From positions 1 through 19,309 of the IMG/VR virus record IMGVR_UViG_3300029725_000137: a stretch of 19,309 bases of DNA. One strand, given 5' to 3'. Under the pieces are notes generated by a model. That model had not been told where the DNA came from. It made no database searches and saw nothing but the letters and a program-made list of their open reading frames with translations. The position numbers were made by a program, and so were the translations under genes. This stretch comes from a virus. The number at the start of each line of letters is the position of its first letter. The first letter of the stretch is position 1. Positions 1 to 14,537 of this stretch are shown here, in pieces.

Positions 1-2058
1 TCAGGGTAACTGGTTGATTTCCACGACAGCGGTCTGGGCATAGTGGTGGCCGACAAAAACCCACACTTGCCGGGGTTGCCCGGTCGTGTTGGGGGCAAGC
101 GTCAGGGTGATTTGGCCGCCGCCGGCTGGTATCTGCTCCGCGGATTGGCTGCACCATACGGCGGCGGGGTCATGCCCGCACATGGTATCGTTCAGCACAT
201 AGATAGCTTCGGAGAGGACGGAAGACGCCGTCAATGTCACGTCGCCGCCAGAGGCCGGCACTTCATGCGCAGAAGCCGTTACTTCCGGAACCGGTTTAGG
301 AGTCACACCCTCCATTACCGTGTCCTTCATGAGGACCCAGGAGTTGGTTATGCCCAGTGAGGGTGCATTGTCTATCCTTATCCCTCCCATACGGAGGCCC
401 GCCTGATAAGTCCCGCTGACTTCGTGTGCCTTGAATTTGGTTGTAAGGCATGCTGTGTTGCCGGCGCCCCAAAAGGAGGAAGCCATATCCATTACATATT
501 GCTTGTCCACAAACAAGGCCCAGCGATTGTAAATCTCCTGGTCATCGGGGTTGGGTGGCGTCATGGCCGCGGAGACGTAGGTAAAAGCCGGAGCCAATGC
601 CCAAACATAATGGGAATCTACCTTGAGGGGTCCGTAAAACGTCCCCCTTATCAAGGCCGACTTATTGCTTCCCAGATACCCCATAGGGTAGGTAGTGATC
701 TGATACGCCGGCACATTGTCGCCCCCTCTCGCTCCATTGACTGTATTGTTTTGCGGATACCTGTAATTTGCATTATCCCAGGCATAATCCACCCAGTGCA
801 CAGGATGTGAATAGCAGGACGCCAGCGGATCGGTAGTCGTAGCGTACCCCTGGGCAGTGCTGCCCAAGAGAACCGACACCTTGTCGGAGCCAAGTATCCG
901 CCAGACGCAAGCGGCAGCATATTCGTTATTTCTATTGTTGCCCATGTAATTGGCAAATTTCCATGATCCCGTGGATTTGCCGATAACAGAAACACCCCCT
1001 GCCGCCGTCATGGTTAATACCATATCGCACAAGTCGTTATTAAATACTCCCTTCTTTAGAGAGGCGTTAGCGGTAGCAATTGTGTAGCTTGTGTTCAACG
1101 ACTGGGCTTCCACCAAGGCGGTCACCCATGACGGAATGACGGATTCCAGAAAATAGTTGGCGCGGCTCCATTGGCCGGCAGCCGTCATGGTTATCATTCC
1201 CTCATAGGAAATGGCATTCTGCCCTGTGGCGGGCAGCGGCACACGGACTCCTTCGATTGCGGTGATCGTGGCGTCGTAGGTCTGCGGCTGCGTCCAGTTA
1301 TAAGACCCGTCCGGATTAACATCCCCGGTATCTCCTTTCTCGCCACGGGGCCCTTGGGGACCCTCCGGCCCCTCGGGTCCTTGCGGGCCGGCAGGACCCT
1401 GCGGTCCGGTTTCTCCAATGTCGCCTTTTGGTCCCTGCTCTCCGGTAGCTCCCTGAGGACCTTGAGGCCCTGCGTCACCCCTGGGACCCTGAGGGCCTTC
1501 GGGGCCGGTTTCGCCCGGTTCCCCCTGCGGGCCTGGTGGGCCTTCGGGACCGGCGTCTCCTTTGGGGATGGTAAACGACAACAGATAAGAGCCCGCTTCC
1601 GAGCCTTTCACGGCTTCCGCTGCGGCAGGAGTGCCAGGCTCGCCGGTAGTGACCCGGTCCACCGAAAGATTGAAATTCTCGGCGTACTTCTTGGCCTGCT
1701 CCGCGTACCAGGCGGCGCTTGACGCATTATCAAGCACGACTTGCACGCATCCGCTTTCTTCCGGCAGCTGCACGACGACCGCACCCGCTACCGCCTGCTG
1801 CTCGTCCGGCAAGTCCGGCGTCACCCGGCCCGAAGAAACAAAGCATCCGTAGAGAAGCGGGCTTTCCTCGTTGCCGTCATCCATGAAGACATCGTAGGAC
1901 CACATGCCCGCGGGCACCGAGGCCCACGAAATCACGCCGTTGCCCTCGTCGTCACGGGAAAAGCCGAACTCGGCAATACCCGTCTTGAGGCGAACGGCTC
2001 CGCGCAGGGTGACGCCGCCCATATCGACGGGATCTCCCTGGAAATCCACCACGCGCAC
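1..2058 (-). CDS. Collagen-like tail fibre / receptor-binding protein with a C-terminal BACON/Ig-like beta-sandwich
   Basis: 685-aa ORF with GTG at 2058..2056 and TGA at 3..1. It has a long uninterrupted G-X-Y run ([37 protein letters not shown]...GEKGDTG). The last ~90 aa (..[57 protein letters not shown]) resemble a BACON-type domain. The frame stays open upstream and has an in-frame AGG at 2118..2116, a possible alternative start. Confidence 0.8.
1324..1560 (-). repeat. Collagen-like Gly-X-Y triplet repeat region inside the fibre gene
   Basis: About 26 consecutive GXY triplets in the translated product. At the DNA level this shows as a GC-rich ggn-ccn periodicity. Confidence 0.9.
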
Positions 2059-2125
2059 GACCAGTGACTGGTTGAGTCCCGTGACGGTCCGTATATCATA
2101 TTTGCCTGCCTGTTGCCTGAAGCGG

Positions 2126-2158
2126 AAGAAAAAGGGTTGCGGGGCGCTTTTGCGCCCC
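2126..2158 (-). terminator. Candidate intrinsic terminator after the 2172..2783 gene
   Basis: Perfect hairpin GGGGCGC-TTTT-GCGCCCC (2141-2147 / 2152-2158). On the minus strand it is followed by GCAACCC and then TTTTTCTT. The U-run is displaced 7 nt from the stem, so this is a weak or leaky terminator at best. Confidence 0.4.
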
Positions 2159-2171
2159 TTGGGTTGGTATG

Positions 2172-2783
2172 TCAGGAAGCGGGCGTCGTCGTCACATCCT
2201 GAATATTGGACGGCGTGGCCTGGTACTGACCCTTGTAATCCATCTCAAATTCAAACTGTGCGGACGCCACCGCGGTTGTGTGTTCCGGATCCTGCAGGAG
2301 ACGCAAGGCGCCATGCCCGATGTAGGTAAGGAATATCTCGCCAATATCGTTCTGATACCACAGTTGCAGGTAGCCTTCTATTTTATTGTCGCCGCCGTGC
2401 CCGATGGCGACGGCTTCCTTGCCGTTGGCCGGGGCTGCGCCCAGCGCAAAAGAGAGCTGGAAGTATTCCGGGGACATATCCGGCGTCGTGAAGGTCATGC
2501 GCTTGCCGGTAGTGGTGTTTTTGCGCTGAACACGGTAGCCTAGAGCTCCACCGTAGAAGCGCGTCACTTCTCCTTCCACCTGCGTAGCTACGGATTGGAA
2601 GGCTCCCAGCAAGCCAAAGCTCACCCAGGGAAATTCGGGGCCAGCCGTCGGATCGACGGGGGGCGCGGTAGGAGGCTCCGGGAACTGATAGGGTCCGGTA
2701 ACGTAGGAGGCGCCGCCTTCCTCGGTCACCTTGATGCCGTCAGGGAGAAAAATCGCCAGGACGCCCGTAATCTGCGGAGTCAC
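2172..2783 (-). CDS. Phage structural protein of unknown role; position suggests tail or baseplate
   Basis: 203-aa ORF with GTG at 2783 and TGA at 2174..2172. It has a Pro-rich segment ([19 protein letters not shown]) and is followed by a hairpin. An in-frame AGG at 2822..2820, five codons after the upstream gene's TAA, is an alternative start. Confidence 0.6.
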
Positions 2784-2837
2784 ATTGCGATTGCTGTAAG
2801 TAGGGTCGTAAGTATTAGGCCTGATGCTTGAATGGGT

Positions 2838-3032
2838 TTAATAAACGATGGTTGCCTTGCCGTCGGCCTCCAGCTTTTCAGCTAAAGCCTTCGTAACAGA
2901 TATTCTGGCTTTTGGCAAGAATATGGAGTTTCCTACCCTGGTTTTTTTCAGGATAATGACGTTGGTGTCGATGACGGCGGCCTGCTCCGTCTTCTTGTCC
3001 GGTTCTGTGTTGGAGGTATTTGCTTTGCTCAT
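2838..3032 (-). CDS. Small phage protein, 64 aa
   Basis: ATG at 3032 forms an ATGA overlap with the stop of the upstream gene. Stop is TAA at 2840..2838. Strand and packing match the late operon. Confidence 0.55.
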   Translation of the reverse strand: MSKANTSNTEPDKKTEQAAVIDTNVIILKKTRVGNSIFLPKARISVTKALAEKLEADGKATIVY

Positions 3033-3226
3033 TTGAGTTCAACCAGGTTGAGGGTTTTCAGAGCTTCCGCGACGGGCGAGGGAAGTTCCAGGGTATCGGT
3101 TTTCATGAAGAGGCTGATGACCAGCCCTCCATCCAGTTCTGTTTTCGTGCTGACGACGCGGACGGTCACCTTGTCCTGGTGATCCCCCTGGTCTTTTTGC
3201 TGTTTATTTTTTGGCGTTCTGCTCAT
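3029..3226 (-). CDS. Small phage protein, 65 aa, with a basic N-terminus
   Basis: ATG at 3226 overlaps the 3' end of the upstream gene by 23 nt. It sits in the late operon. Confidence 0.55.
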   Translation of the reverse strand: MSRTPKNKQQKDQGDHQDKVTVRVVSTKTELDGGLVISLFMKTDTLELPSPVAEALKTLNLVELK

Positions 3227-3734
3227 GGAATTCCGTTTTGGTTCGTATGTTGATATTGATCGGGACGCGGTAGTCCACGGTCAAGACGTTCATTTGCCTC
3301 TTCTCTCCGTCGATAATCCCGGAAGAGGCAAAGCGCCCCTTGATCTTGGGCTTCATCATGGCGGGCGCGGGAAACGGAAGTGGATTCCAGTTCCACAGGG
3401 CATGCTCAATCACGTCGCCCACGGCGCGCAAATAGTAGGCCGGCGTCAGGCATTCCTCCGGGAACAGGGCAGCGTTGTGATAGATGGCTACAATAATGAA
3501 ATACTGCCTCCACATGGTAGGTTCCGCCGTCTGCCCGTGTCCGTCCTGGTATTCATCCGCATCCCCGGGACACACCAGCACCACGCCGTTATTCCCCATT
3601 GCAGACATGATGATGTCATTGGCGGCATACTCCGGATCAAAGGGCGCGTCAAAGATGTGGCAGCTCAATTCCTTGCTGCTTTTGAGCCGCTCAATGATGC
3701 GGCAGCTCATGGTCTGGTCAATGGAGGGGATCAT
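3204..3734 (-). CDS. Phage head/neck completion protein, function unassigned
   Basis: I start this gene at MIPSIDQT.. (ATG 3734..3732), which forms an ATGA overlap with the stop of 3731..4396. The longer track ORF (to 3839) would overlap the upstream gene. Confidence 0.65.
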   Translation of the reverse strand: MIPSIDQTMSCRIIERLKSSKELSCHIFDAPFDPEYAANDIIMSAMGNNGVVLVCPGDADEYQDGHGQTAEPTMWRQYFIIVAIYHNAALFPEECLTPAYYLRAVGDVIEHALWNWNPLPFPAPAMMKPKIKGRFASSGIIDGEKRQMNVLTVDYRVPININIRTKTEFHEQNAKK

Positions 3735-4396
3735 GATTCGTTTCCGATTTGGGTGAGGTATGTTTCCGCGGCGCGCTGCGCCATTTGGTCCATCGTCGGC
3801 AGGATGCCAGGAGTAGGAGCAATCGTTACTTCCCGGCACAGGATATAGAGGACGTCTCCTGTTTTCGTTCCTTTGCTGAAAAGCTTGCGGGCCGCTTTCT
3901 TCCCGGTGGAGGACTGGGCTGTCTTGAGAATCAGGACACCGGTTACATTTCCATTCCGTCCTCCATTTTTGGAGGGGATGAATTGCAAGTCCTCTTTGCG
4001 GAAGCCTGCGCTGTAAATGCTTCGGGTCCCTCCATGCCCTCGTGGCGCGTTGATGGTGGGGATGGCGAGGTTCTGAATCGGCTTGCCGGTGACTTCCGAA
4101 GTGCGTCCGGTGGGCCGCAGCGGGCCGCCCAGGTAGCCCTGCGTGCCTATCCAGTGCAGGCCGATGCCGCGCCAGGCAATGGAGACGCTGACGCCTTCGG
4201 CGGTTTCTTCCATGCTGGTGGCGTCCGCCGCGGCGTCGTAGTAGTCCTTGCCCTGCTGGCGCAAGGTTTGCTGAATCATCAGACTGAGGGCAACGCCCGC
4301 CTTGCGGATGGCGGTCTTGTGCAGGGCGGCGGACGGCGCCATGTCGGCAAACGCGCGGTTAATCGCGGATTGGTCGATGTGGACGGTTACAGCCAT
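3731..4396 (-). CDS. Phage virion morphogenesis-type protein, function uncertain
   Basis: I start this gene at MAVTVHIDQSAINRAF.. (ATG 4396..4394), 10 nt overlapping the upstream TAA (4389..4387). The Arg-rich N-terminal extension in the track ORF (to 4573) looks non-coding. Confidence 0.6.
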   Translation of the reverse strand: MAVTVHIDQSAINRAFADMAPSAALHKTAIRKAGVALSLMIQQTLRQQGKDYYDAAADATSMEETAEGVSVSIAWRGIGLHWIGTQGYLGGPLRPTGRTSEVTGKPIQNLAIPTINAPRGHGGTRSIYSAGFRKEDLQFIPSKNGGRNGNVTGVLILKTAQSSTGKKAARKLFSKGTKTGDVLYILCREVTIAPTPGILPTMDQMAQRAAETYLTQIGNES

Positions 4397-5523
4397 TTGA
4401 CGGGTAAAACGTAAGGGGTTGACAGTTCCACATTGAGGGCTCCGGCGACGTCTTCCACTTTCCTGACGTGCCCGGAGGTAATGGGATAGGTGAATTCCCC
4501 CTCTTCCTTTGGGGAAACGGGGATATACTGGCGGGAGGACGCGGCGGCCACGTCTGCGGGCCGGGCGTACCAATCACCTTCCGGCTCGGAAGCCAGACGG
4601 TCCAGCAGGCGGTCGAGGTAAAGTGATGCCAGCGTTCCGGCCACGGCTCCCCCGGCTGCCGCCAGACGGAACGCCTGGGCCTGGCGCAAGGGGATCTCTT
4701 CTGGGAAATCCCCGGACAGGACTTCCGCCAGTTCCGCGTCCGTGTAAGGGCGCGTCCCGTTCGGGTCGGTGTAGGTAAAGGTGGTATTGCGGTCGTTCTC
4801 GGTTTTAACACGCACGGCGTCTTTCAGGATGCGGCGGATCTTCTTTTTATTGGCGTTCGTGATACTTATAGTATTGCTTTCCAGAGTGGCGTTGAAGCTG
4901 GCGGGAGCGAGACGGACGCGGGAAACCTCCAGTCCGGCCGCGCGGGCTTCTTCGGCTCCCACGGGGGCAATGTTCATGCCGGAAAGGTAATCGAAGGGAG
5001 GATAAGGCGTTCCGAAGCGCGAGAGGCGAATCCAGATGTCGGAGGCCGCCAGGGCGTAGCCGACGGTTTCGCCGCGGATGAAACCAGAAGAAACTGCCTC
5101 CGTGGCCTCGTTCTCCAATCCGGTTCTGGCACGGTTCCAGCGTTCAGCCCAGTAGCGCGGGTCTTCCCGGCCCTGGGAACGGTAAAATTTAAAGGCGGCG
5201 GTGTCGTCGTCCTGTGTCCAGTTATACCAGTTCCGGTAGCCGTGCGCCATGGCCGCATTGGTTTCCATGACGACCTGGATACGAAGCCAGGATGACAAAT
5301 CCTGAATGCCGCCCTGCCCCGTTGCCGGCGGTCGGTAGCCCTGCTGGCGCAGGGTTTCGCGGATGGACTGCTGCGCCTCTTCATAGCTCAGGGCGCCGGA
5401 GGCGACCTTCCCCGCCTTTTCCTCAAAGTCGGACAGGATAACGCCGGGCTCCACGCCGGACACGAAAAAGGCGCGTTCGGCGTAGTCGTTGGCGATCATC
5501 TCCATCTGGGCGGCGGTCATCAT
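4387..5523 (-). CDS. Putative minor head / head-morphogenesis protein, weakly Mu F / SPP1 gp7-like
   Basis: 378 aa, with an ATGA overlap to the upstream gene at 5520-5523. The segment ..WLRIQVVMETNAAMAHGYRNWYNW.. resembles the (A)RTE..A...G motif of the Mu F family. That family assignment is from memory and low confidence. Confidence 0.55.
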   Translation of the reverse strand: MMTAAQMEMIANDYAERAFFVSGVEPGVILSDFEEKAGKVASGALSYEEAQQSIRETLRQQGYRPPATGQGGIQDLSSWLRIQVVMETNAAMAHGYRNWYNWTQDDDTAAFKFYRSQGREDPRYWAERWNRARTGLENEATEAVSSGFIRGETVGYALAASDIWIRLSRFGTPYPPFDYLSGMNIAPVGAEEARAAGLEVSRVRLAPASFNATLESNTISITNANKKKIRRILKDAVRVKTENDRNTTFTYTDPNGTRPYTDAELAEVLSGDFPEEIPLRQAQAFRLAAAGGAVAGTLASLYLDRLLDRLASEPEGDWYARPADVAAASSRQYIPVSPKEEGEFTYPITSGHVRKVEDVAGALNVELSTPYVLPVKWL

Positions 5524-5996
5524 CGGTAGGTGCTTCTCATGGGGTTGAACCAGGGGCGCTGAGTGAAGCGCGGCATCATGTAGGCGGGGTCCGCCGGGGC
5601 GGCGCCGTCTACGCTTTCCGGCAGCATTTCGCCTCGTGCATAGCGGGCCAGCATCTCATCGGCCGATTCAGCGGCTTTCTGGCGCGTTTCGGTCAGGTTG
5701 ATCTGGTAGCGCAGGTAAAGCTGCCGGATGATCAGCGGCCACGCCAGGGAGCGCATGCTCTGCGGGATGTCGTACATGCCGCTATTCTGGAGCGATTGCC
5801 GCAGGGCGAGGTTGTTGGCCAGCGCCCCGCGGATGGCCATGCAGACATCGTTGACCGCCTCCATCATGACGTCCCGGTAGTCCAGGCTGCGCAGCTCCCC
5901 GGCTTTCACCAGGGCGTCGCGCTCCGCAGTGTTGAGGCCGAGGAGTCGGTCGGCTTCATCCGTAGTGATGGTGGACCAGGCGGGAAAGGCGGACAT
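5520..5996 (-). CDS. Head-tail connector-position protein, DUF1320 / Mu gp36-like by position and size
   Basis: 158 aa, ATG at 5996, immediately downstream of the capsid gene. In Mu/B3-like head modules this is the usual place for gp36-like proteins. Confidence 0.5.
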   Translation of the reverse strand: MSAFPAWSTITTDEADRLLGLNTAERDALVKAGELRSLDYRDVMMEAVNDVCMAIRGALANNLALRQSLQNSGMYDIPQSMRSLAWPLIIRQLYLRYQINLTETRQKAAESADEMLARYARGEMLPESVDGAAPADPAYMMPRFTQRPWFNPMRSTYR

Positions 5997-6017
5997 GATG
6001 GAGGCGGGTTGGGTGGG

Positions 6018-6941
6018 TTAAGCCGTGGCCGTCGCGTCGATGCGGACGATGGCGGACGGGTTGGTCAGCTTGGTCAGCGAGTAGACGCGGTTGGTTACCA
6101 GCGTCAAAGCGGGCGTCGGCTTGTATTCCGTGATGACTTCGCGGCGGAGCTTGCCGGACAAACCAAACGTCTTGATGGCAGAGGCGTCGAACTGCGTCGG
6201 GGAGTCTTCCTTGTACAGGACATAGACTTCGTTCTCCATGATGGTCTTGGCGTCGCCGGAAGCGTCGCGGTAGGGCATGGCTGCGATGTAAATATCCCTG
6301 ATAGGCCGAATCAGCGCATTGCGGAGCAGGTCTTCGTTGAAGAGGCCGACACTGTTGAATGACACCACCTGTCTGGCAATGGGGTTGGCTCGCAGGAGCT
6401 GCCAGGCGTTGATGCCAAAGACGATGGTGTTAGGCATGTGTCCAGTCGCCGCATTGATGGACAGGATGGCATTATCCAGATCCGTCAGCGGATTCTTCTG
6501 TTCGTTGGCCCAGTCCCCGTAACCGGCTGCGGCAGGCAACTGGCTGGTGATGAGCTTGGCACGTTCATATTCATACGAGGTCACAAACTGTGATTCGATG
6601 AGCTTGTATTCCGCCAGGGTGATAGCCTGCGCCTTTTCGCGGTTGACGCCCAGCAAGGCGTCCGGAATCGGCAAGGTTAAGCCGTACCCCTGAAGGGTGT
6701 CGGTTTCGTTCCTGCCGCGCAGGACGGTCTGGCGGGGAGGTTCGCCCGGTCCCACCTGGATCGGCTGGACCGTAAAGGCAGATTCCGTGTCCCAGACCTT
6801 GTACTGGAAATTGAGGTCGTAAACCGGGACGATCGGCGCAATGCGGCTGATAATGGAGTTCTCTTCGGTGTTTCCGGAACCCGCAGAATAAGCGGTCAGA
6901 ACATCGGTGAACTGGACGGCTGAGCAAAATGGAGTAGCCCT
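6018..6941 (-). CDS. Major capsid protein, lambda gpE-like family, with proposed AGG start
   Basis: The track ORF is 6018..6755, starting at GTG. The same frame is open back to the TAA at 6965..6963. The upstream part reads [AGG]ATPFCSAVQFTDVLTAYSAGSGNTEENSIISRIAPIVPVYDLNFQYKVWDTESAFTVQPIQ.., which looks like genuine capsid N-terminal sequence. No in-frame ATG/GTG/TTG lies in 6756-6962, and there is an in-frame AGG at 6941..6939. This start gives 307 aa versus an implausible 245 aa. The gene sits after the protease and the decoration-position gene. Confidence 0.7.
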   Translation of the reverse strand, partial: RATPFCSAVQFTDVLTAYSAGSGNTEENSIISRIAPIVPVYDLNFQYKVWDTESAFTVQPIQVGPGEPPRQTVLRGRNETDTLQGYGLTLPIPDALLGVNREKAQAITLAEYKLIESQFVTSYEYERAKLITSQLPAAAGYGDWANEQKNPLTDLDNAILSINAATGHMPNTIVFGINAWQLLRANPIARQVVSFNSVGLFNEDLLRNALIRPIRDIYIAAMPYRDASGDAKTIMENEVYVLYKEDSPTQFDASAIKTFGLSGKLRREVITEYKPTPALTLVTNRVYSLTKLTNPSAIVRIDATATA

Positions 6942-6974
6942 TGTTCTTTGTCTTTCTATTGATTAGTGTTGATG

Positions 6975-7406
6975 CTACACAGCTGCGACCTGGTAGGAGG
7001 GGACGAATCCGATTTCCACCATGCCCTGTTCCCACTGGGCGTGGATCACGCGGGCATAGACAGTTTCTCCGCTGGCGGCGGCCTTCCATGCTCCGTTGGC
7101 CGTGATGGTGAGGGGCGTTCCGGCGTTGATCGTGCCCGGCGTGTCGGAAAGAGCTGCCTTGATCAGGCCTGCATACATGCCGACGAGAGCGGCGACGCAG
7201 GTTCCCTGGTTGGGCTGCCCTTGCAGGACTACGCCGAGCAGCTGTGTCTGCGTAGGGATGGTGGACAACGGCGTCCCGATAAACTCGGGGATGTCCGGGT
7301 TGGCGGTCAGCGCCACGACGGTTCCTTCCTGTCCGCACAGGTCAACACCCTCCGGGGTGTTGAAATAGACGATGGCGCTTTTCTGGGTTACATTGAGTGA
7401 TGGCAT
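6975..7406 (-). CDS. Head decoration-position protein, DUF2190-like
   Basis: 143 aa with ATG at 7406 and TAG at 6977..6975. It lies between protease/scaffold and major capsid, the position lambda D occupies. Confidence 0.55.
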   Translation of the reverse strand: MPSLNVTQKSAIVYFNTPEGVDLCGQEGTVVALTANPDIPEFIGTPLSTIPTQTQLLGVVLQGQPNQGTCVAALVGMYAGLIKAALSDTPGTINAGTPLTITANGAWKAAASGETVYARVIHAQWEQGMVEIGFVPSYQVAAV

Positions 7407-7426
7407 TGGTTTGTATCAGGTTGGGG

Positions 7427-8542
7427 TTATCGTTCGGAGGTTACAATGTAGCCTTCTTCGGTGGCTTTCTGGAAAGCGTCGTACCGCTTCATGCCGCCCT
7501 TCATCAATTCGTCCACGCGGTTCCGGAATCCGTCGATGGATTCCTTTTTGCGGAACGGATTGGGCGGCGCCTGGGTGGCACGGCGGTTCAAGGACGTTCT
7601 TCCAACTGGATTGCGGCGGCTTTCGTCAACAACGTCATGCGGCGGCTTTGACTTCGCGGACCGATTGAGAGCCTTGACAAAGGCGCCCAGTGCGGCGGGG
7701 CTTTCCCGGAGAGAGTTTTTCAGCTCTTCCCGGCGTTCTTCCGTAAACTCCTCGCGTTCTTCCTCGTCCAGTGCGTTTTCATACGTACTGACGGCTTCGT
7801 CCACTTCGGCGTTCACGGCATTCTTCTCTCTCTTTTCCAGATCGAGAAGTTCATCCACGCGGCGGAGGATTTCCCTGGACATGTCATCGGTTCCGTCAAA
7901 TTCGACGTCCAATTTATCGAGCAGGGAATCAAACAGAGCCCGCTGGGCTCGGTCCATTTCCTTCGCCGGGTATTCTTCGGCGTTTTCTTTCATCGTTTTG
8001 TCTTGGTTGGTTTCCCCCTCTTCGGGGCTTTTGTTTTCGCCCCCGTCCTTGTCGGGGGAAGTCTGTCTATTGATGAGCGGGCGCTTGCCCTTGATGCGCG
8101 GACGGTTGGTCAACGCGAATCCCGTCAGGCGAGTGGGAGTGTAAACGCCGTCCTCCAAGGTCATGCCGTCCATATACTCCGTAGACGATTGCGTGTACTC
8201 CTTGTCGATAAGCATTTGCAGTCCGCGTGGCGTCCAGTCGATAAAACCGTACAATTCCAGGCTGCCTGACGGATCCCGGTAGGTATCCAGTTTTTTCAGC
8301 CAGCCCAGGGCCCGCGTATCGCGGCTGACGTCATGGCTGAGGTGATCGCCGTCAATCAGCATGCCGGGGCCATCGAAAGTGCGGGAATTGAATTCATCCA
8401 CCATTCTTTGAATGACCTCTTCATCAATGCGAAGGAGCGCGGGTCCTTCCCCGTAGTCAACCTCGTGATCGCCGGATTTCTCGATGTGATACCATCCGTT
8501 CTTCGGATCGCTTAAATCATTGATTTGTTTTGTACTGATCAT
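7427..8542 (-). CDS. Mu-like prophage protein I family head protease fused to an acidic scaffold-like C-terminal half
   Basis: N-terminus ..NGWYHIEKSGDHEVDYGEG..LLRIDEEVIQRMVDEFNS..GMLIDGDHLSHD.. matches the Mu gpI protease family pattern as I recall it. The C-terminal ~190 aa is highly charged and coiled-coil-like (scaffold-like). ATG at 8542 overlaps the portal 3' end by 26 nt. Confidence 0.7.
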   Translation of the reverse strand: MISTKQINDLSDPKNGWYHIEKSGDHEVDYGEGPALLRIDEEVIQRMVDEFNSRTFDGPGMLIDGDHLSHDVSRDTRALGWLKKLDTYRDPSGSLELYGFIDWTPRGLQMLIDKEYTQSSTEYMDGMTLEDGVYTPTRLTGFALTNRPRIKGKRPLINRQTSPDKDGGENKSPEEGETNQDKTMKENAEEYPAKEMDRAQRALFDSLLDKLDVEFDGTDDMSREILRRVDELLDLEKREKNAVNAEVDEAVSTYENALDEEEREEFTEERREELKNSLRESPAALGAFVKALNRSAKSKPPHDVVDESRRNPVGRTSLNRRATQAPPNPFRKKESIDGFRNRVDELMKGGMKRYDAFQKATEEGYIVTSER

Positions 8543-9881
8543 CGTAAAACCCTTTCATCAGCGCATTGTTGATAAGCTCCCTCAATTGTTCAAAAGCGTC
8601 GGGCGGTATACCGTTATCTTCAGCTTCCCGGTTGGATGCTGCCACAGGAGGAGCGGCATCCCGGGTGTCCTCGACGGACATGCCGAGCTTCTCTTCAACT
8701 TCCGTCTTTTCCAACCGCACGCCTCCATCCGCAAGAGCGGCGATTTCTTCCGCCTTCTGCAGCGGCGTCTGGACGGTATCAAAGGTGATCTGGAGTCGGG
8801 CCAGCGGTTCTGCGTCTCCCAGCACAAGAGGATTAACGGCAGTATTAAAGGCTTCCGCCACTTTGCTGCACACAGCGGACACGACGGAATTCCAGCTATC
8901 TGTATGCGCTCCCCCGGCCAGGGTGCCGGATCCCGATTCGTTCAACACAGTCAGAGTGCCGGCCATCACAAAGCGTACCTGATCCTTGTCGGCAAGATTG
9001 ATACGCGAGAGGAAATAGTTTTCATTGATGGAGGATGCCTTGAGGGGTTCCGCCGTACATCCGGGAGGCAGGACGACGGATGCACCTGACTTGAGTTCTT
9101 CGCAGGCGCGCTCAAGTGCGTCCATGACAGCGGCGCTTGCTTCTTTGGGAGCCGTGATGATGACCGGGGCGGACCCGTAGCGGTCCATGTGGTTGTCCCA
9201 GACAATCTTGGCATGGTTGCGCTCAAAGGAGGCTCGGGAGGCAGGAAACAGGATGGGATAGGGATGCTCCATCACCACAAGCGTTTCCTCTTCCACGCTT
9301 TCTCCCGTATCCACGCCAATATGGCATTGTGGGTTAAACTGCCACTCGTTCAGCTCGCCCGGGCGCACCCAATAACGCTGCGGAATAAATTCAAACCTCC
9401 GGCCCCAGGCGTCCTCGATAAATTGCAAATGGGCGTAGCCGTAAAATACCGCGGAAGCGAGTTGCCCAAACGCCGGCTGAAGGCCGTTAATGGAGTTGTA
9501 GAATTCTTCCAGGGCGTTTTTCTGTCTCTGTGCTTCGGGGCTGTCATTGGCGGCGTCAATTTTCCATCCCTGCATGGACACGCTTTCAATCATCCGCGAA
9601 TAGAGCATGCCCAGCATGCCGTCCGAATAGATTACCTCGTCCCAAATGAGCATTTGCCGCGCAAAGGCTCCCCTTCTGGCCTCATTGCGGGCATCAATGA
9701 GGGTTTGCAGGCCCGCCCCCTGGAGAGGATCCCAGTATTCAAACCATTGGGGGCGGCCAGGAAGGCGGCTCCGGTCCGTTAAGGCGCGTCGGGCAAGGTC
9801 TGTCTCAAGCTCCTTGATTCTGGTCTCTTGTTGTGCGACCAGCTTGGGAGCGTTGATGATATTTTTGACGGCGTTTAACCT
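8517..9881 (-). CDS. Portal protein, Mu gp29 / DUF935-like, with proposed AGG start
   Basis: The track ORF is 8517..9653 (ATG). The frame continues open upstream and reads [AGG]LNAVKNIINAPKLVAQQETRIKELETDLARRALTDRSRLPGRPQWFEYWDPLQGAGLQTLIDARNEARRGAFARQ-MLIWDEVIYSDG.., with no in-frame ATG/GTG/TTG. An in-frame AGG lies at 9881..9879, 23 nt downstream of the tRNA 3' end. This start gives 454 aa, a typical portal size. Confidence 0.72.
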   Translation of the reverse strand, partial: RLNAVKNIINAPKLVAQQETRIKELETDLARRALTDRSRLPGRPQWFEYWDPLQGAGLQTLIDARNEARRGAFARQMLIWDEVIYSDGMLGMLYSRMIESVSMQGWKIDAANDSPEAQRQKNALEEFYNSINGLQPAFGQLASAVFYGYAHLQFIEDAWGRRFEFIPQRYWVRPGELNEWQFNPQCHIGVDTGESVEEETLVVMEHPYPILFPASRASFERNHAKIVWDNHMDRYGSAPVIITAPKEASAAVMDALERACEELKSGASVVLPPGCTAEPLKASSINENYFLSRINLADKDQVRFVMAGTLTVLNESGSGTLAGGAHTDSWNSVVSAVCSKVAEAFNTAVNPLVLGDAEPLARLQITFDTVQTPLQKAEEIAALADGGVRLEKTEVEEKLGMSVEDTRDAAPPVAASNREAEDNGIPPDAFEQLRELINNALMKGFYDDQYKTNQ

Positions 9882-9904
9882 GCGACTGAGACGGTGAGAA
9901 ATAT

Positions 9905-9978
9905 TGGTTGCAGGGGGAGGAGTTGAACCTCCGACACGGGGACAGGAACCCCGTATGATACCGTTTCACCACCCTGCG
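9905..9978 (-). tRNA. tRNA with anticodon CCU, formally tRNA-Arg(CCT), carrying initiator-tRNA-type acceptor and anticodon stems
   Basis: 74-nt cloverleaf folded by hand. Acceptor CGCAGGG/CCCTGCA has 6 Watson-Crick pairs plus a C1-A72 mismatch. Then U8 G9, D-stem GUGA/UCAU, D-loop AACGGUA, A26. Anticodon stem is CGGGG/CCCCG and the loop is UUCCUGU, with anticodon CCU corresponding to plus-strand agg at 9944-9946. Variable loop UGUC, T-stem GGAGG/CCUCC, T-loop UUCAACU, discriminator A73, and an encoded CCA. Confidence 0.9.
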
Positions 9979-9994
9979 ATTGAATATACATCAA

Positions 9995-10023
9995 TACATA
10001 TAGATATGTTGATATATTGTCAA
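9995..10023 (-). promoter_or_regulatory. Candidate sigma70-type promoter dedicated to the tRNA
   Basis: On the minus strand, TTGACA (10023..10018) is followed by a 17-nt spacer and TATGTA (10000..9995). This lies in a 47-bp AT-rich, partly palindromic spacer between the terL stop (10026) and the tRNA 5' end (9978). Confidence 0.45.
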
Positions 10024-10025
10024 CC

Positions 10026-11399
10026 CTAATACCTGCCGATGGAACGATTTCTTTTTGGTCTTGTGACATACCAGGCTCCAAGCTCCCTGACCAAGCCGCT
10101 GTGTTTTCGTGCATGCCACGCCATGACAAGAGCGTCGGCCCGGTCGGGAGAACGAACTCCACGCTTTGCCATGTCCTCCTTGCTCTCGATTTTGACACGC
10201 CCGATCGCGTCTGTCTGGACGCGCGGTGCGACCAGCTGTTCGATTGTGTCCTCGTCGATGTCGAGAATGAGCTCTTTTTCCTCGATCGCACGGGCGAGCG
10301 CTCTCCAGGCCTGGGCGCGCAGATTGACAAAGGCCTGCGTATCGTCGGACGGAAAGCCGCCCCGGTAGGAGTGTATCGGGAAGCCCTCGGCCCGGAAGTC
10401 GTCGATGATGGGGAGCCCGAGTCCATCACCGTCGGCAAAGATACTGTCGGCGGGAATGCCAAGCTCGGCGGCTTTGCGCCGGAACCGTCCGCGGGCTCCG
10501 ACGGTGTCGGGGGCTGACCAGTGGTCGGCAATGAAGAAGCGATTGCCCTGCCCGGCCGCAAAGACGTTTTCGTCGCCCCCGGCGGCGAAGTCAAAGCCGC
10601 CGCAGGTCTCCCCGGTGTCCAAAAAGGGAGGCGGGTTGTTGAGCAGCTCCATGATGGCGCGGCGGGAAATGACGGATTGCCCGTCAAGGTCCGTGAATTC
10701 GCCGAGGATGGCCGAGCGGTAGAAGGAGGACTGTTCGCCGTATTCTTTTTTCAGGCGTTCGGCCTTGCCTGGATCGTTGATTTCGATGTGCGGGCAATCC
10801 TCGTATTTAACGCGGATTTTGTAGTAGAGGGATGAATTTTTGTGGAAGCAGTCGTAAAAGGTTCCGGAATCGGCACCCGGCGACGAGGTGATGAACGCGT
10901 TGAAGAGCGTGCAGCGGGAAACAGCGGTGAAGATGGGGTCCGGGATGGTCTTGGCTTCATCGAGGACGTAAAAGACCGGGTCAACGTCGGGCGAGATTTT
11001 CGGGTGCCATCCTTCCGCGCGTCCGGCGTTGTCGGTGGAGAATCCCACGGCAAATCCTCCTTCCGGCGTGCGGATTTCGGTTTTGTTGAATGTCCAGCCG
11101 TCAAAGAAGGGGTTATCCATATAACGGCGAAGCGCGGGAAAGAGCTGTTTTTCTACCTGCATCCACGATGATGACGTGACTGGCACCTGACCCCGAGGAA
11201 AATAGGTAAGGAAACACAGGATTGCCGGCGCAATGGATAGGCTCGTCTTTCCCGATCCGTTCGGAGCAACCATGGCCACGCTTCGGCCTCCCAGCCTCAC
11301 CTTTCCGAGAAGCAACGCCTTGATGGCCTCGATTTGCCAGGGATAAGGATCGAGTCCGAGGATGTGACGGAGGAAGAAGCTGACGGGGAGATGATTCCT
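10026..11399 (-). CDS. terL: Terminase large subunit with proposed AGG start
   Basis: Walker A is APNGSGKT, Walker B-like is VFYVLDEA, and the C-terminal half looks like the nuclease domain (..DFAAGGDENV.., ..ADGDGLG.., ..SPDRADAL..). The track ORF starts at TTG 11315. The frame is open to the TAA at 11408..11406, and the upstream part reads [AGG]NHLPVSFFLRHILGLDPYPWQIEAIKA-LLLGKV... The PYPWQ motif, typical of TerL N-termini, lies upstream of the first canonical start. In-frame AGG at 11399..11397. Confidence 0.8.
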   Translation of the reverse strand, partial: RNHLPVSFFLRHILGLDPYPWQIEAIKALLLGKVRLGGRSVAMVAPNGSGKTSLSIAPAILCFLTYFPRGQVPVTSSSWMQVEKQLFPALRRYMDNPFFDGWTFNKTEIRTPEGGFAVGFSTDNAGRAEGWHPKISPDVDPVFYVLDEAKTIPDPIFTAVSRCTLFNAFITSSPGADSGTFYDCFHKNSSLYYKIRVKYEDCPHIEINDPGKAERLKKEYGEQSSFYRSAILGEFTDLDGQSVISRRAIMELLNNPPPFLDTGETCGGFDFAAGGDENVFAAGQGNRFFIADHWSAPDTVGARGRFRRKAAELGIPADSIFADGDGLGLPIIDDFRAEGFPIHSYRGGFPSDDTQAFVNLRAQAWRALARAIEEKELILDIDEDTIEQLVAPRVQTDAIGRVKIESKEDMAKRGVRSPDRADALVMAWHARKHSGLVRELGAWYVTRPKRNRSIGRY

Positions 11400-11405
11400 G
11401 CTCGG

Positions 11406-11921
11406 TTAAGGGTGGAGTTTGCCGGCAATGGTTTCCAGCGCGGTTTTCTCGTCTTCCTGCAGCTGGGCGAGCTGCTCGGGGTCCAGCGTGATTTTCCGTT
11501 CCAGCGGCGCCCCGGGAACGCCGGCGACGTCCTGGCGGACCCGGTCTCCAAATTTTTCGGGAGCGAAACGGGCAGCGACTTTCAGCCGGGTTTCAATGGC
11601 GAGCTTCTTGGCAGCGACGGAGGCGGATCCGCAGTCGGGGTCGAGGGCAACCTGGGCAGCGGCATCTGACAAAGACTGACACTCGTCGAGCATGGCTTCC
11701 GACTGCGCTTCCCGCGCGCGCTGAATGAGTTTACAAAACTCTTCCCGTTCGTGCCTCCATCTCCAGACAGTTAAAACCTCCGGCATGTGATCGTCCGAGC
11801 AAATGGACTTCATCGTTTCCCCGTTGGCTAAGCGAGAGGCTATCTCGGCAGCTAACGCCTCCGTATAGAGGCTGGGCCGTCCTATTTTCTTGTTGGTGGT
11901 AGGTGATTGCTTCTTTTTCCT
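11406..11921 (-). CDS. terS: Terminase small subunit with proposed AGG start
   Basis: The C-terminal part ..RAREAQSEAMLDE..AAKKLAIETRLKVAARFAPEKFGDRV.. matches a widespread TerS family pattern. The track ORF starts at ATG 11813. The frame is open to the TAG at 11930..11928 and reads [AGG]KKKQSPTTNKKIGRPSLYTEALAAEIASRLANGET-MKSICSDDHMPEVLTVWRW.., the classic HTH N-terminus (GRPS.YT.E.A..I..RLA.GES) of this family. No in-frame ATG/GTG/TTG is present, and there is an in-frame AGG at 11921..11919. Confidence 0.75.
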   Translation of the reverse strand, partial: RKKKQSPTTNKKIGRPSLYTEALAAEIASRLANGETMKSICSDDHMPEVLTVWRWRHEREEFCKLIQRAREAQSEAMLDECQSLSDAAAQVALDPDCGSASVAAKKLAIETRLKVAARFAPEKFGDRVRQDVAGVPGAPLERKITLDPEQLAQLQEDEKTALETIAGKLHP

Positions 11922-11929
11922 GCGGGTCT

Positions 11930-11959
11930 ACTCTAGAGGACAAGTGGCTAACAAATCAA
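11930..11959 (-). promoter_or_regulatory. Weak candidate late-operon promoter
   Basis: On the minus strand, TTGATT (11959..11954) is followed by an 18-nt spacer and TAGAGT (11935..11930). A transcription start there would fall 1-4 nt before the terS AGG, giving a near-leaderless mRNA. The match is weak. Confidence 0.25.
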
Positions 11960-11991
11960 GCACTCTGTTTGTTCATTCCTTTCTGGGGCCA

Positions 11992-12020
11992 TTGACAAAT
12001 CTGACCCTCTCACATATACA
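11992..12020 (+). promoter_or_regulatory. Candidate sigma70-type promoter for the plus-strand accessory block
   Basis: TTGACA (11992-11997), a 17-nt spacer, then TATACA (12015-12020). The GTG of the next ORF is at 12027, so the transcript would be leaderless or nearly so. Confidence 0.45.
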
Positions 12021-12026
12021 GATTTT

Positions 12027-12545
12027 GTGAAAAAGTGTCCTATATGCGGCAAGGATGTTCCGCCGCGCTACGGATCGCGGGAAAGAGTGTACTGCTCCCG
12101 CGCATGTCTCAAGGCACACTATGACGCCGCCTGGGAAACTATCACCTGCCCCGTGTGCGGAAAGGAATTCCGCGCTAAAAAACTCTTTCGGCGGAAACAT
12201 TGCTCTTATCCTTGCGCGAATGCAGCCCAGAAGGGGCGGAAAATCACGTCAGAAGCCTTTCAGGAGGCTTGCAAGCATCGGGGAGTTCCCGGCCCCAGGA
12301 AGCACCCCAGAACAGGGAAATTTGAGACAAATTGCCATGCAAAGATATGGCTGCTGGAATCCCCGGATGGAGAGAAAGTCACGGCTCGGAATCTCAAACT
12401 CTACATGATAGACCGGTACGGCGAAGAAAAGGGGAAAAAGGTCTATAAGCTCCTGGTTTGTGCTGCACAACGCTTCCGTAAATGCGGACATGGCGGCGGC
12501 GCCGGATGGCGGGTACTTGCCGCCCCTGCCGTCCCGAAGGAATAA
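12027..12545 (+). CDS. Tandem zinc-ribbon (FCS/TRASH-like) protein with a C-terminal phage DNA-binding-like tail
   Basis: 172 aa starting at GTG. It has two copies of CPxCGK-x(11-13)-(Y/H)CSxxC: CPICGKDVPPRYGSRERVYCSRAC and CPVCGKEFRAKKLFRRKHCSYPC. The C-terminal ..CHAKIWLLESPDGEKVTARNLKLYM...GWRV resembles tails seen on phage homing-endonuclease-like ORFs. That resemblance is from memory and low confidence. Confidence 0.6.
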   Translation: MKKCPICGKDVPPRYGSRERVYCSRACLKAHYDAAWETITCPVCGKEFRAKKLFRRKHCSYPCANAAQKGRKITSEAFQEACKHRGVPGPRKHPRTGKFETNCHAKIWLLESPDGEKVTARNLKLYMIDRYGEEKGKKVYKLLVCAAQRFRKCGHGGGAGWRVLAAPAVPKE

Positions 12546-12576
12546 AAAAGGGCAGCCCCGAAGAACCGCCCTTTTT
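12544..12576 (+). terminator. Candidate bidirectional-looking intrinsic terminator
   Basis: An A-run (12544-12549) precedes stem GGGCAG (12550-12555) / CCGCCC (12566-12571), which has one mismatch and a 10-nt loop. It is followed by TTTTT (12572-12576), directly after the stop of 12027..12545. Confidence 0.45.
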
Positions 12577-12746
12577 AAGGGAATGAGCGTTTCCGCTCGT
12601 GCTGATCTTGTGATCGTTTTAATCCACAGCCCCGGAGGGCTGACGTGTTCCTAGAAAGAACAAATTACTTCTCTCATATTTTGCGCCAGACCGCAAGCAA
12701 AAACGGAATGACAACTTTTTTCACCTTTTTTCATTTTTTCTCTTGC

Positions 12747-12769
12747 GTTACTATAAATTTTATAGTAAC
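12747..12769. promoter_or_regulatory. Perfect 23-bp palindrome, a candidate operator, in the AT-rich promoter region of the acidic-protein gene
   Basis: GTTACTATAAA-T-TTTATAGTAAC has 11-bp arms, all 11 positions complementary. It contains TATAAA/TATAGT -10-like hexamers and lies 75 bp upstream of ATG 12844. Confidence 0.5.
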
Positions 12770-12843
12770 TTAATTTTGTTGACGGGAGGTAAGGGACCGA
12801 ACGAAGACATAATCCAAACAACAAAACTAGAAAGAACAAGACA

Positions 12844-13167
12844 ATGAACGATAACAAAATCATCACCACGGAAGACGGAGAAGAAATCAACCTGACCGCT
12901 CTTGAACGTGAATTCGGCAGCTACGACTTTGAAGGCAAGACCTATTATGCAGCGCGCCAGATGGAATACACCAACAGGGTTTTCCCTGGCTCCTACGCGG
13001 ACAAATACGAGGACGGCAGCTACATGGAAGAATGGTCTGCTCCTGGCTATGATGCAGAAGGGAACAAGGTTGAAATCTTCATGGCCTTTGAACAAATGAC
13101 GGGCGAAGAAATTGACGGAGAAAACCTCAACTGGACGCAGGACGCTTCCCGCGTTGAAGCTCGCTAA
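12844..13167 (+). CDS. Small, strongly acidic protein (107 aa), function unknown
   Basis: ATG start. By my count there are about 25 D/E versus 9 K/R. It has its own AT-rich upstream region and a downstream hairpin. Confidence 0.65.
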   Translation: MNDNKIITTEDGEEINLTALEREFGSYDFEGKTYYAARQMEYTNRVFPGSYADKYEDGSYMEEWSAPGYDAEGNKVEIFMAFEQMTGEEIDGENLNWTQDASRVEAR

Positions 13168-13176
13168 ATAACCCCC

Positions 13177-13204
13177 AGGGGCGGCAAAGCCGCCCCTCCT
13201 TTCT
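13177..13204 (+). terminator. Candidate terminator or attenuating hairpin
   Basis: GGGGCGGC-AAA-GCCGCCCC (13177-13195) followed by TCCTTTCTC. The U-tract is poor, and the next ATG is only 5 nt further on, so it is probably leaky. Confidence 0.4.
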
Positions 13205-13208
13205 CACT

Positions 13209-14513
13209 ATGACCGCACAAGAATTTATCGACTGGCTTCAAACTGCCAACAATCTTCCAAATCCTACCCAAGCTGTAAAAAGGGCCGCGCAGATGATGCG
13301 GGTGACGGAAGATGTTATTTGGAAATGGTTAAATACTAAAAAACCATACCCCACGCCTGAATACATGCAATTACTCATGGATTTATTGCATGAGAAATAC
13401 CGAGAAAAGAGGTTTTACCGCATTCTTTCTCACGAACAGCGTGAAGAGATGCGGTCCATGTTGGGCAAAAAACCTGATCTGGAAATCGCCGAGCTACTCG
13501 GAATAGCGCGCGTCACGGTCCAGACTGAACGCTATAAATTAGGTATCAAAAAGTATTGCAGCCCTGAAGCAATCCGCATCCAACATGATGAAGAGCTTAT
13601 TGCAGTGCTCGGAAAAATTCCTGACTCGGAGTGTGCCAAGAAGTTTGGATACTCAAATTCCAGAGTAGCCTACCTTAGAAAGAAATTAGGGATTAAGTCA
13701 TATAAGGGGCCGCGTAAACCCCGTCAGCCACGAGACCCAAATAAACCACACAAGAAAAAAGAGTATCCCGAAGAGTTAATTAACATGCTTGGAAAGACCC
13801 CGGATGATGAAATTGCTAAAAAATTCGGTTATTCCAAGGCAGGAATTGCGCTTATTAGAAAAAAGATGGGCATTCCATCATTACCTGATACTAAATTCCC
13901 CAAAATGAAACGCGAAGAAATGCTATCTATGCTTGGAAAATTTCCTGATAGCGAAATTGCTGAAAAGTTTGGAATATCGCTTAATTTTGTAGCGCGGAAC
14001 CGTAGAAAATTAAAAATTGCTCAAGCTCCATACTCCCCCATTAAGGATGCGGACAAGGATATGATTCTTAATTTATTGGGAAGAGTATCAGATTTAAAAA
14101 TTTCAAAAAAAACAGGGTACAGCCCATATGTAATTAAAAAATTTAGAGAACAGAACAAAATTAAGCCTTTCAATAAAAGCATTTTAGAAAGATTTTCACC
14201 GGACCAACGTAAAAAACTCTTATCTATGCTTGGGAAAGTTTATGATAGAGTAATAGCCGAAAAATTTAATATTGATAACGAGGTAGTAAGAAGAATTAGA
14301 CAGAAATTGAATGTTCCGGCATTACGTGAGGAAAAAAGCTTGCAAGAAACAATAGAAAGGGACGAATACATTAAATCCCTGCTGGGCACAATGACTGATA
14401 AAGAAGTCGCTAATAAAACAGGCAAATCAATACAAGTTATCGGAAAAGCAAGGAGAAAATTAAATATCCCGGCGTTTGATACAAGGGGTCGGTCTACAAA
14501 GAAACAATCTTGA
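13209..14513 (+). CDS. Multi-HTH DNA-binding protein with an N-terminal HTH plus 7 tandem GerE / sigma-70-region-4-like repeats
   Basis: 434 aa with 7 repeats of the pattern (E/D)x(M/L)(L/I)xxLGKxPDxEIAxKFGxSxxxVxxxRRKLGI(P/K). Examples are LGKKPDLEIAELLGIARVTVQTERYKLGI, LGKIPDSECAKKFGYSNSRVAYLRKKLGI, LGKTPDDEIAKKFGYSKAGIALIRKKMGI, LGKFPDSEIAEKFGISLNFVARNRRKLKI, LGRVSDLKISKKTGYSPYVIKKFREQNKI, LGKVYDRVIAEKFNIDNEVVRRIRQKLNV and LGTMTDKEVANKTGKSIQVIGKARRKLNI. The period is 48-60 aa. The DNA is visibly AT-richer than the rest of the window. Confidence 0.8.
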   Translation: MTAQEFIDWLQTANNLPNPTQAVKRAAQMMRVTEDVIWKWLNTKKPYPTPEYMQLLMDLLHEKYREKRFYRILSHEQREEMRSMLGKKPDLEIAELLGIARVTVQTERYKLGIKKYCSPEAIRIQHDEELIAVLGKIPDSECAKKFGYSNSRVAYLRKKLGIKSYKGPRKPRQPRDPNKPHKKKEYPEELINMLGKTPDDEIAKKFGYSKAGIALIRKKMGIPSLPDTKFPKMKREEMLSMLGKFPDSEIAEKFGISLNFVARNRRKLKIAQAPYSPIKDADKDMILNLLGRVSDLKISKKTGYSPYVIKKFREQNKIKPFNKSILERFSPDQRKKLLSMLGKVYDRVIAEKFNIDNEVVRRIRQKLNVPALREEKSLQETIERDEYIKSLLGTMTDKEVANKTGKSIQVIGKARRKLNIPAFDTRGRSTKKQS

Positions 14514-14537
14514 TCTTTCCAAGATAAAAAGCGCCCC

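Follow-up and report, generated by a model that had tools for sequence, protein, structure and literature searches.

Where does a capsid gene begin when the first canonical start codon in its frame would leave out the N-terminal part of the protein? This question is raised by a 19,309-nt stretch of viral DNA (IMG/VR record IMGVR_UViG_3300029725_000137, positions 1 to 19,309; the whole stretch is called the window below), which corresponds to the late region of a temperate phage of Akkermansia muciniphila. A preliminary description had put the start of its major capsid gene at a non-canonical codon that precedes GTG 6755, and had named an AGG at 6941 as the first candidate. We find that this AGG is indeed the start-equivalent codon: it stands on the column that holds the Met of homologues, and the capsid protein probably starts at 6941 with a length of 307 residues. 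AGG fills the start slot of five window genes in total, and the window encodes a tRNA whose anticodon, CCU, is complementary to it. We consider it very likely that AGG is here a start codon read by a phage-encoded initiator tRNA(CCU), the capsid observation being the visible edge of a larger system.

The capsid gene extends upstream of its first canonical start

On the minus strand, the first ATG, GTG or TTG in the capsid frame is GTG 6755, which gives 245 residues (open reading frame, ORF, 6018..6755). Upstream of it lie 69 further open codons encoding ..FTDVLTAYSAGSGNTEENSIISRIAPIVPVYDLNFQYKVWDTESAF.., in which the near-start candidates are one AGG (6941), ATA (6959) and one CTG (6899), all as the preliminary description had them. 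An in-frame TAA at 6965-6963 closes the stretch, and the frame, open from 6962, comprises 314 codons. AGG 6941 is the sole AGG within the open upstream stretch, and GTG 6755 follows 62 codons past it.

A protein search of 5.8 billion sequences returned relatives that were all Akkermansia-associated. Three full-length homologues of ~307 residues (P0001, P0005 and P0047) have the N-termini MPNNFCTAVQFTDVL or MANLFYSAVQFTDVL; the window reads R-ATPFCSAVQFTDVL, and the Met of all three homologues falls on the AGG 6941 column. At this slot the DNA of the window clade is ACA AGG GCT ACT CCA TTT TGC. A second clade, at 70% identity and including the closed genome CP048438.1 and the element AP021899.1, has ACA AGG GCT AAT CTA TTT TAT, and in the related loci L011/L018 and L006/L007/L016 the slot column is ATG. 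Many closer relatives are annotated with a capsid of 245/246 or 278 residues, and NCBI labels the 278-residue form 'major capsid protein'. The missing capsid start is common to relatives and is not an error; the short gene calls were its first sign. An exhaustive profile search extended the comparison to ~500 distant homologues of 300–320 residues, each with ~30 residues ahead of the INRIAP motif. In a 79-sequence family alignment, at least 90% of the sequences have Met in column 1, to which the window AGG is aligned. The other near-start codons were rejected as starts: ATA 6959 is ACA or TTA in relatives, and CTG 6899 is conserved just in the AGG clades and owes its conservation to Leu15, which it encodes and which is nearly invariant in the 79-sequence alignment.

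The segment between AGG and GTG evolves as coding sequence. The ratio of non-synonymous to synonymous rates (omega) is 0.013 between the window and L019 (17 synonymous changes, 1 non-synonymous) and 0.11 between the window and L024. The preliminary description had argued that the gene is neither a pseudogene nor a frameshift, and the gene is in fact intact, with no break in frame and with its upstream codons under coding constraint. The sequence TAGAAAGAC is kept in the AGG clades and in the ATG-bearing L018 alike, and the AGAAAGA motif in front of the start slot is a putative, possible ribosome-binding element.

The PHROG profile phrog_1005 (major head protein) matches residues 19-271 of the 314-codon frame, from profile position 13. 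An AlphaFold2 model built on the alignment of 79 homologues reached a predicted local distance difference test (pLDDT) score of 90.3, and ~96 at residues 31-50. In the modelled capsid, residues 9-18 form a helix, residues 37-40 and 44-49 are strands, and the spine helix spans 101-134. Searched with Foldseek against the PDB, the model matched HK97-fold capsids over its full length, with 3bjq at E = 3e-18 and a template modelling (TM) score of 0.67-0.71; further matches were lambda gpE (8k39) and the YSD1 and Chi capsids. A Pfam search of the capsid protein gave zero matches, and a profile search of PDB sequences gave a weak match to 3bjq (E = 0.03). By both profile and fold, the protein belongs to the HK97-fold capsids of the PF03864/phrog_1005 type, whose fold comprises N-arm, E-loop, spine helix and A domain. 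As a check, the preliminary description had proposed asking whether the N-arm is encoded upstream of 6755, and this is where the predicted structure places the N-arm and the first strands. According to the model, a product begun at GTG 6755 would be without these parts of the HK97 fold.

AGG occupies the start slot of five late genes

With the tRNA-less relative L016 as a ruler, we recorded the codon in each locus that is aligned to each L016 start codon. In the window, AGG stands in the start slot of the large terminase (terL), the portal, the capsid, a 216-residue tail gene and a 705-residue tail fibre. The first canonical start of terL is TTG 11315, 28 codons downstream, and homology to the L016 TerL begins at codon 2 of the frame. 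That of the portal is ATG 9653, 76 codons downstream, and its AGG is aligned to the TTG start of L016. In the 216-residue tail gene the first canonical start comes 13 codons past AGG, and in the tail fibre it is GTG 2058, 20 codons downstream; the tail fibre extension differs between the window and L024 by 7 synonymous and 0 non-synonymous changes. The protease and the 143-, 158-, 378-, 221- and 176-residue genes retain ATG.

Exactly one AGG is present in four of the five open N-terminal stretches. Internally, AGG accounts for 18 of 3850 late-gene codons (0.0047), or 8% of Arg codons, and at this frequency the chance of five coincidences between AGG and a start column is ~2e-12. Between the tRNA and the portal AGG the spacer is 16, 22 or 23 nt long among relatives; since its length varies, there is no conserved frame upstream of the portal AGG.

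Public annotations of the relatives L019, L024 and L026 place the portal start inside the tRNA gene (484 residues) or at an internal ATG (378/397 residues), and public capsid calls are those of 245, 246 or 278 residues noted above. These Akkermansia phages are systematically mis-annotated. A separate observation concerns the base before the start slot: four of the five window genes (11400, 9882, 2823 and 2119) have C here, as relatives do, and the capsid gene has A. Pairing of this C with G37 of the tRNA was considered and rejected: the ATG alleles of the endolysin gene mostly have C too, and an A37 variant of the tRNA shows no matching change.

A phage tRNA with anticodon CCU and the anatomy of an initiator

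ARAGORN detects one tRNA in the window, 3 kb upstream of the capsid gene, with the anticodon CCU complementary to AGG and the sequence CGCAGGGUGGUGAAACGGUAUCAUACGGGGUUCCUGUCCCCGUGUCGGAGGUUCAACUCCUCCCCCUGCAACCA. A single base (position 35) separates CCU from CAU, and its complement separates AGG from AUG. The tRNA has a C1xA72 mismatch, G2:C71, C3:G70, A73 and an encoded CCA, and the Rfam model flags the pair 1:72 as non-canonical. Its anticodon stem is closed by four G:C pairs (G28-G31 : C39-C42), including the three (29:41, 30:40 and 31:39) that mark initiators. A mismatch at 1:72 is the main formylase determinant and an EF-Tu anti-determinant, while an elongator tRNA needs a Watson–Crick 1:72 pair to bind EF-Tu. 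A20 is a major identity element of bacterial arginyl-tRNA synthetase (ArgRS), together with C35 and U36.

We gathered 15 sequence variants of the tRNA across relatives, from a total of 73 copies. The anticodon is CCU in all 73 copies, and thus never the CAU of the Met-specific tRNAfMet class. The initiator mismatch C1xA72 is present in 15/15 variants; position 1:72 is never paired in the way expected of an elongator tRNA-Arg(CCU). All 20 stem pairs are intact in every variant, and eight of them, spread over the acceptor, anticodon and T stems and including 4:69 and 7:66 of the acceptor stem, show compensatory double changes. The three G:C pairs are all kept in 11 of the 15 variants. Identity to real tRNAfMet(CAU) genes, one of them a phage initiator of 74 nt with the same short D arm, is 70-78%; to E. 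coli tRNA-Arg(CCU) it is 55%, the E. coli comparison sequences having been entered by hand. C35 and U36 are present; the A20 of an elongator tRNA-Arg(CCU) is not. The anatomy suggests that the phage tRNA(CCU) is best classed as one that works like an initiator, and not as a tRNAfMet.

The closest counterpart is a phage tRNAfMet(CAU) found in IMG/VR (loci L146/L191). It shares the length of 74 nt, the acceptor stem CGCGGGA/UCCCGCA with C1xA72, the 7-nt D loop, U11:A24 and the GGGG/CCCC anticodon stem, at 78% identity, but its anticodon is CAU and it reads the normal start codon. In pattern scans of IMG/VR, the CCU initiator-like tRNA was confined to the present phage family; three other matches to the pattern were rejected as chance matches.

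In the spacer that separates the terL stop from the tRNA, a TTGACA (-35) element is present in all but one of 25 variants, and the ATATCAA repeats are conserved. A consensus scan gave 2 sites against 0.3 expected. The spacer also holds a TATATG/TATGTA box resembling a -10 element and repeated ATATCAA/GATAT motifs. This composition suggests that the tRNA has its own, possibly regulated promoter, and the spacer could serve both the tRNA and the downstream head genes as a regulated promoter and operator.

Co-occurrence of the tRNA and AGG starts among related loci

Comparison was extended to 53 loci from IMG/VR, Logan, NCBI and JGI, 50 of which carry the tRNA. Among tRNA-bearing loci, AGG fills the portal slot in 50/50, the capsid slot in 49/50, the terL slot in 48/49, the slot of the 216-residue tail gene in 40/40 and that of the tail fibre in 39/39. 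The sole exception is L018, which has the tRNA together with ATG at capsid and terL, and AGG at the portal and both tail genes. L016 and L017, in which the tRNA is absent over 15.5 kb and 9.4 kb, have ATG or TTG at every slot. One further contig (L101) has an AGG capsid start and stops short of the tRNA position.

The endolysin gene of relatives offers the clearest single case. Its start slot, 8 nt behind AAAGGAG, is AGG in 12 loci and ATG in 10, and the two alleles stand behind an identical Shine–Dalgarno (SD) sequence: AAAGGAGAATAATC AGG AAAATAGCC versus AAAGGAGAATACTC ATG AAAATAGCC.

Two public records belong to the family. The 'plasmid' pJ30893 of A. muciniphila JCM 30893 (AP021899.1, locus L008) belongs to the phage family and has the tRNA and AGG starts; its closed circle of 32.8 kb is present in pure culture at ~3 copies per chromosome (PMC7019068). 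The unannotated GenBank entry 'Akkermansia phage DTMo-2021a' (CP084202.1, L132) shares the tRNA and the AGG starts. The phage family appears to replicate, and both entries argue against a decaying prophage.

Weighing the initiator reading and its alternatives

Several points count against an initiator function of the tRNA. Only two G:C pairs are present in the anticodon stem of 4 of the 15 variants, two having A29:U41 and two U31.G39. All variants have U11:A24 and not the A11:U24 of E. coli-type initiators; U11:A24 is also found in the bona fide CAU initiator of L146/L191, so A11:U24 is not universal. The tRNA has G37, unlike the textbook E. coli initiator, and in 12 of the 15 variants the T loop (UCCAAYU) has C55 in place of the near-universal U55. 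The D loop, AACGGUA, has U at position 20 and is thus without A20, and methionyl-tRNA synthetase (MetRS) is expected to reject CCU. The co-occurrence is phylogenetically confounded, because the tRNA-less clade is a single lineage (L016/L017, of lower G+C content). A simple temporal gate in which the tRNA comes first does not follow, since the AGG-started TerL lies upstream of the tRNA. Finally, the case is built on sequence comparison and computation. As to the T loop, that of the window tRNA is the canonical UUCAACU (9921-9927; alignment columns 52-58), and G18 or G19 is altered in three variants; if the tRNA is functional, the changes at C55 and G18/G19 would imply an unusual elbow.

Set against these points are the observed anatomy of the tRNA, its conservation and covariation, its co-occurrence with AGG starts and the coding constraint on the codons behind them. 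An initiator reading of AGG accounts for them best, and the other explanations receive far less weight.

The first of these, which we judge improbable, holds that the host tRNAfMet reads AGG inefficiently as a near-cognate codon and that the phage tRNA(CCU) is an elongator for a rare Arg codon. ARAGORN labels the tRNA as Arg from its anticodon, near-cognate initiation is known in bacteria, and phage tRNAs serving rare codons are common. However, a mismatch at the second position is the least tolerated, and AGG initiation with native tRNAfMet is rejected by IF3 proofreading (PMC10158994, PMC6868393); moreover, the affected genes, the major capsid gene among them, are those that need the highest output. 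As for an elongator, C1xA72 is conserved amid compensatory change elsewhere in the tRNA, which is the opposite of what EF-Tu requires, and A20 is missing. AGG starts are found only alongside the tRNA. Internal AGG is so rare (4.7 per 1000 codons) that an elongator supplement is not needed, and the codon demand expected of an elongator tRNA-Arg(CCU) is therefore lacking. Recoding by a suppressor tRNA does not fit either, as there are no in-frame stops inside the late genes and the window's sole tRNA reads a sense codon.

Somewhat less probable still is another form of recoding. The candidates are readthrough from the gene upstream or coupling to it, a frameshift from ATT/TTG, which are out of frame at 6930/6927, and editing of the start codon in the RNA. 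The upstream 143-residue gene is in the capsid frame in the window, and ATT 6930 is conserved. Yet this ATT belongs to conserved Phe-Cys/Tyr codons and lies at least 17 nt from the upstream motif, and the endolysin slot, behind a canonical SD sequence, requires no such device. We know of no bacterial editing that turns AGG into AUG. Individual candidates were also tried and rejected. Readthrough from the 143-residue gene was dropped on L001-L005, in which a 1-nt insertion changes the frame relation, and on the two stops that lie between; readthrough from terS into terL on a terS-to-AGG spacer of 5 or 6 nt, depending on the relative; and the out-of-frame start with frameshift on a TTG that is TTA in the other clade and on the lack of a shift site.

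It is very unlikely that the capsid truly starts at GTG 6755 (245 residues), or at the internal ATG used for the 278-residue clade, with the upstream frame left untranslated. Gene callers do output capsids of 245, 246 and 278 residues, and GTG is a legal start codon. The position of such a start, however, differs by clade (GTG at codon 63 versus ATG at codon 30), while AGG is common to both. The upstream codons show omega values of 0.01-0.11 and are free of stops and indels, the short product would lose the N-arm and strands 37-49, and all distant homologues have ~30 residues before INRIAP. Least credible, to the point of being negligible, is a sequencing or assembly error or a decaying prophage that has lost its start codons: a single T-to-G change does convert ATG to AGG, but the same AGG recurs in dozens of independent assemblies, including the closed isolate genomes CP048438.1, AP021899.1 and CP084202.1, five genes are altered alike with their coding constraint intact, and an extrachromosomal multicopy form exists.

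A proposed mechanism and its relation to known systems

How the tRNA would be charged, formylated and used in the P site, and what purpose it would serve, we infer as follows. Transcription, possibly from a conserved promoter of the tRNA itself, and processing would come first. Aminoacylation would follow; Arg is the likeliest amino acid, since C35 and U36 belong to the ArgRS identity elements, though the missing A20 leaves room for others. The tRNA may be formylated, since C1xA72, G2:C71 and C3:G70 are formylase determinants. Placed into the 30S P site, it would pass IF3 proofreading by its Watson–Crick match to AGG. The AUG-to-AGG change in five late genes of the window, and likewise in the endolysin gene of many relatives, complements the CAU-to-CCU change of the tRNA. 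The capsid N-terminus would then be (f)R-ATPFCSAVQFTDVLTAYSAGSGNTEENSIISR or a processed form of it. A possible purpose is to tie late-protein output to the phage tRNA, which may make the switch to lysis sharper or set the module apart; shielding against competitors and freedom from the host initiator are other, speculative purposes. Taken as a whole, the locus is likely to be a natural orthogonal initiation system, carried by a temperate phage of a major bacterium of the human gut, in which packaging, head, tail and some lysis genes start on AGG and yield their products only with the phage tRNA, probably with non-Met N-termini (formyl-Arg or Arg).

A literature search, in which subscription journals were thinly covered, found no natural initiator tRNA with an anticodon other than CAU and no natural AGG starts; it turned up engineered initiators with changed anticodons and near-cognate initiation by the normal initiator. 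An amber initiator, tRNAfMet(CUA), reportedly comes from the RajBhandary laboratory. Any of the 64 anticodons, placed on an initiator tRNA, supports initiation in vitro at its complementary codon given Watson–Crick pairing at positions 1 and 2, and codons that begin with A or G work best (PMC10158994). Engineered systems include, beside this survey, i-tRNA-AAC (bioRxiv 10.64898/2025.12.21.695813) and that of PMC11744186. They resemble the phage pair in that an initiator body with a non-CAU anticodon directs initiation at the complementary non-AUG codon, giving a gene set a private start codon. They are, however, products of engineering that operate in vitro or in E. coli, whereas the CCU/AGG pair is natural and virus-encoded, and conserved over diverged phage lineages in five or six essential late genes.

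Phage suppressor tRNAs recode stop codons in crAss-like and Lak phages (genetic codes 4 and 15). There, too, a codon is given another meaning by a phage tRNA, chiefly in genes that are late or structural, and gene callers are misled, but a stop is reassigned in elongation; here a sense codon, AGG (Arg), would gain a second meaning at initiation only. Natural non-AUG starts read by ordinary tRNAfMet are GUG, UUG, AUU of infC and GTC of sigR (PMC5472188). They share with AGG a start that is not AUG and an expression that depends on the initiation machinery. Unlike AGG, they rely on mismatch tolerance, and in nearly all of them U is retained at position 2. AGG departs at that position, with a matching tRNA supplied. 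The capsid itself is of the type of lambda gpE and Bordetella BB3626 (3bjq), found with a Mu-like portal and protease module. Fold and gene order (terS, terL, portal, gpI-like protease, small head protein, capsid) are ordinary; the start codon alone is unusual, not the protein.

Features of the window and other tRNA loci

Table 1. Positions of the AGG-started genes, the tRNA and associated elements in the window
Feature	Position	Strand	Notes and evidence
705-residue collagen-repeat tail fibre	1..2118	-	AGG 2118-2116; aligned to ATG of L016 9432
216-residue tail-module gene	2172..2822	-	AGG 2822-2820; aligned to ATG of L016 8744 (MATTLSPDY)
Major capsid protein gene, 307 codons from AGG, HK97 fold	6018..6941	-	phrog_1005 E = 4e-19, AlphaFold2, Foldseek
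Capsid codons 2-62 without canonical start; N-arm helix (residues 9-18), strands 37-49	6756..6938	-	Purifying selection, pLDDT
Capsid start-slot AGG	6939..6941	-	Aligned to ATG of L006/L007/L016 (P0001) and L011/L018 (P0005)
AGAAAGA motif 9-10 nt before capsid start slot, possible ribosome-binding element	6951..6957	-	Conservation
Portal (Mu-type)	8517..9881	-	AGG 9881-9879, 23 nt past tRNA 3' CCA; PF06074
tRNA, anticodon CCU, initiator-type	9905..9978	-	ARAGORN; Rfam tRNA 54.2 bits
Promoter-like spacer between terL stop and tRNA	9979..10025	-	Conservation, consensus scan
Large terminase	10026..11399	-	AGG 11399-11397, 6 nt past terS stop; phrog_2

Beyond these features, the window has a low-G+C island at 13000-15000 (43-45% versus ~57%) with an ORF of 434 residues on the opposite strand, 13209-14513 (+). 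Its protein has several helix-turn-helix domains (phrog_323, D5-like transcriptional regulator) and could be a regulator, or else a moron of foreign origin. The replication-initiator ORF 15346-16287 (-) was called from TTG 16287, and its PHROG match begins only at residue 62; judged by this match, its true start may lie further downstream.

Two further kinds of tRNA were noted in other phages. A 75-nt tRNA called Glu(CUC) is present in L149 (1931-2200) and L169 (3826-3900; IMG/VR 3300029875_000266 and 3300045988_123901, respectively), with G1xA72, three G:C anticodon-stem pairs, an CCCGCAACCA end and a poor D stem. Past it, L149 has GGAGG, 8 nt and a GAG that opens a 60-codon ORF resembling a membrane protein, whose first canonical start comes 28 codons in; L169 diverges directly after the tRNA. 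The site could be an integration junction instead. A 74-nt tRNA called Lys(CUU) lies just upstream of terS in the low-G+C phages L273, L280, L281 (2651-2724) and L288, with G1xA72, A11:U24, three G:C pairs and a GCAACCA end. A pattern of AAG starts was not seen in 12 kb of L281 late genes, all of which have an SD sequence and ATG.

Implications

The AGG starts explain the wrong public annotations of common Akkermansia phages, with capsids of 245-278 residues and a portal that begins inside a tRNA gene. Gene finders limited to ATG, GTG and TTG would truncate or miss genes wherever such tRNAs exist. If the initiator reading is true, this would be, as far as the literature searched shows, the first natural redefinition of a start codon by a dedicated initiator tRNA, so far a matter of engineering only, and it would provide synthetic biology with a ready orthogonal pair of initiator and start codon. 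It would also raise the questions of which amino acid stands first in these proteins and what processing their N-termini undergo. A further question would be whether the system serves to gate lysis, to shield the phage from competitors or to get around attacks of the host on tRNAfMet. The near-universal rule that initiation uses a CAU initiator would be breakable in nature, and initiation would join the steps at which viruses rewrite the genetic code.

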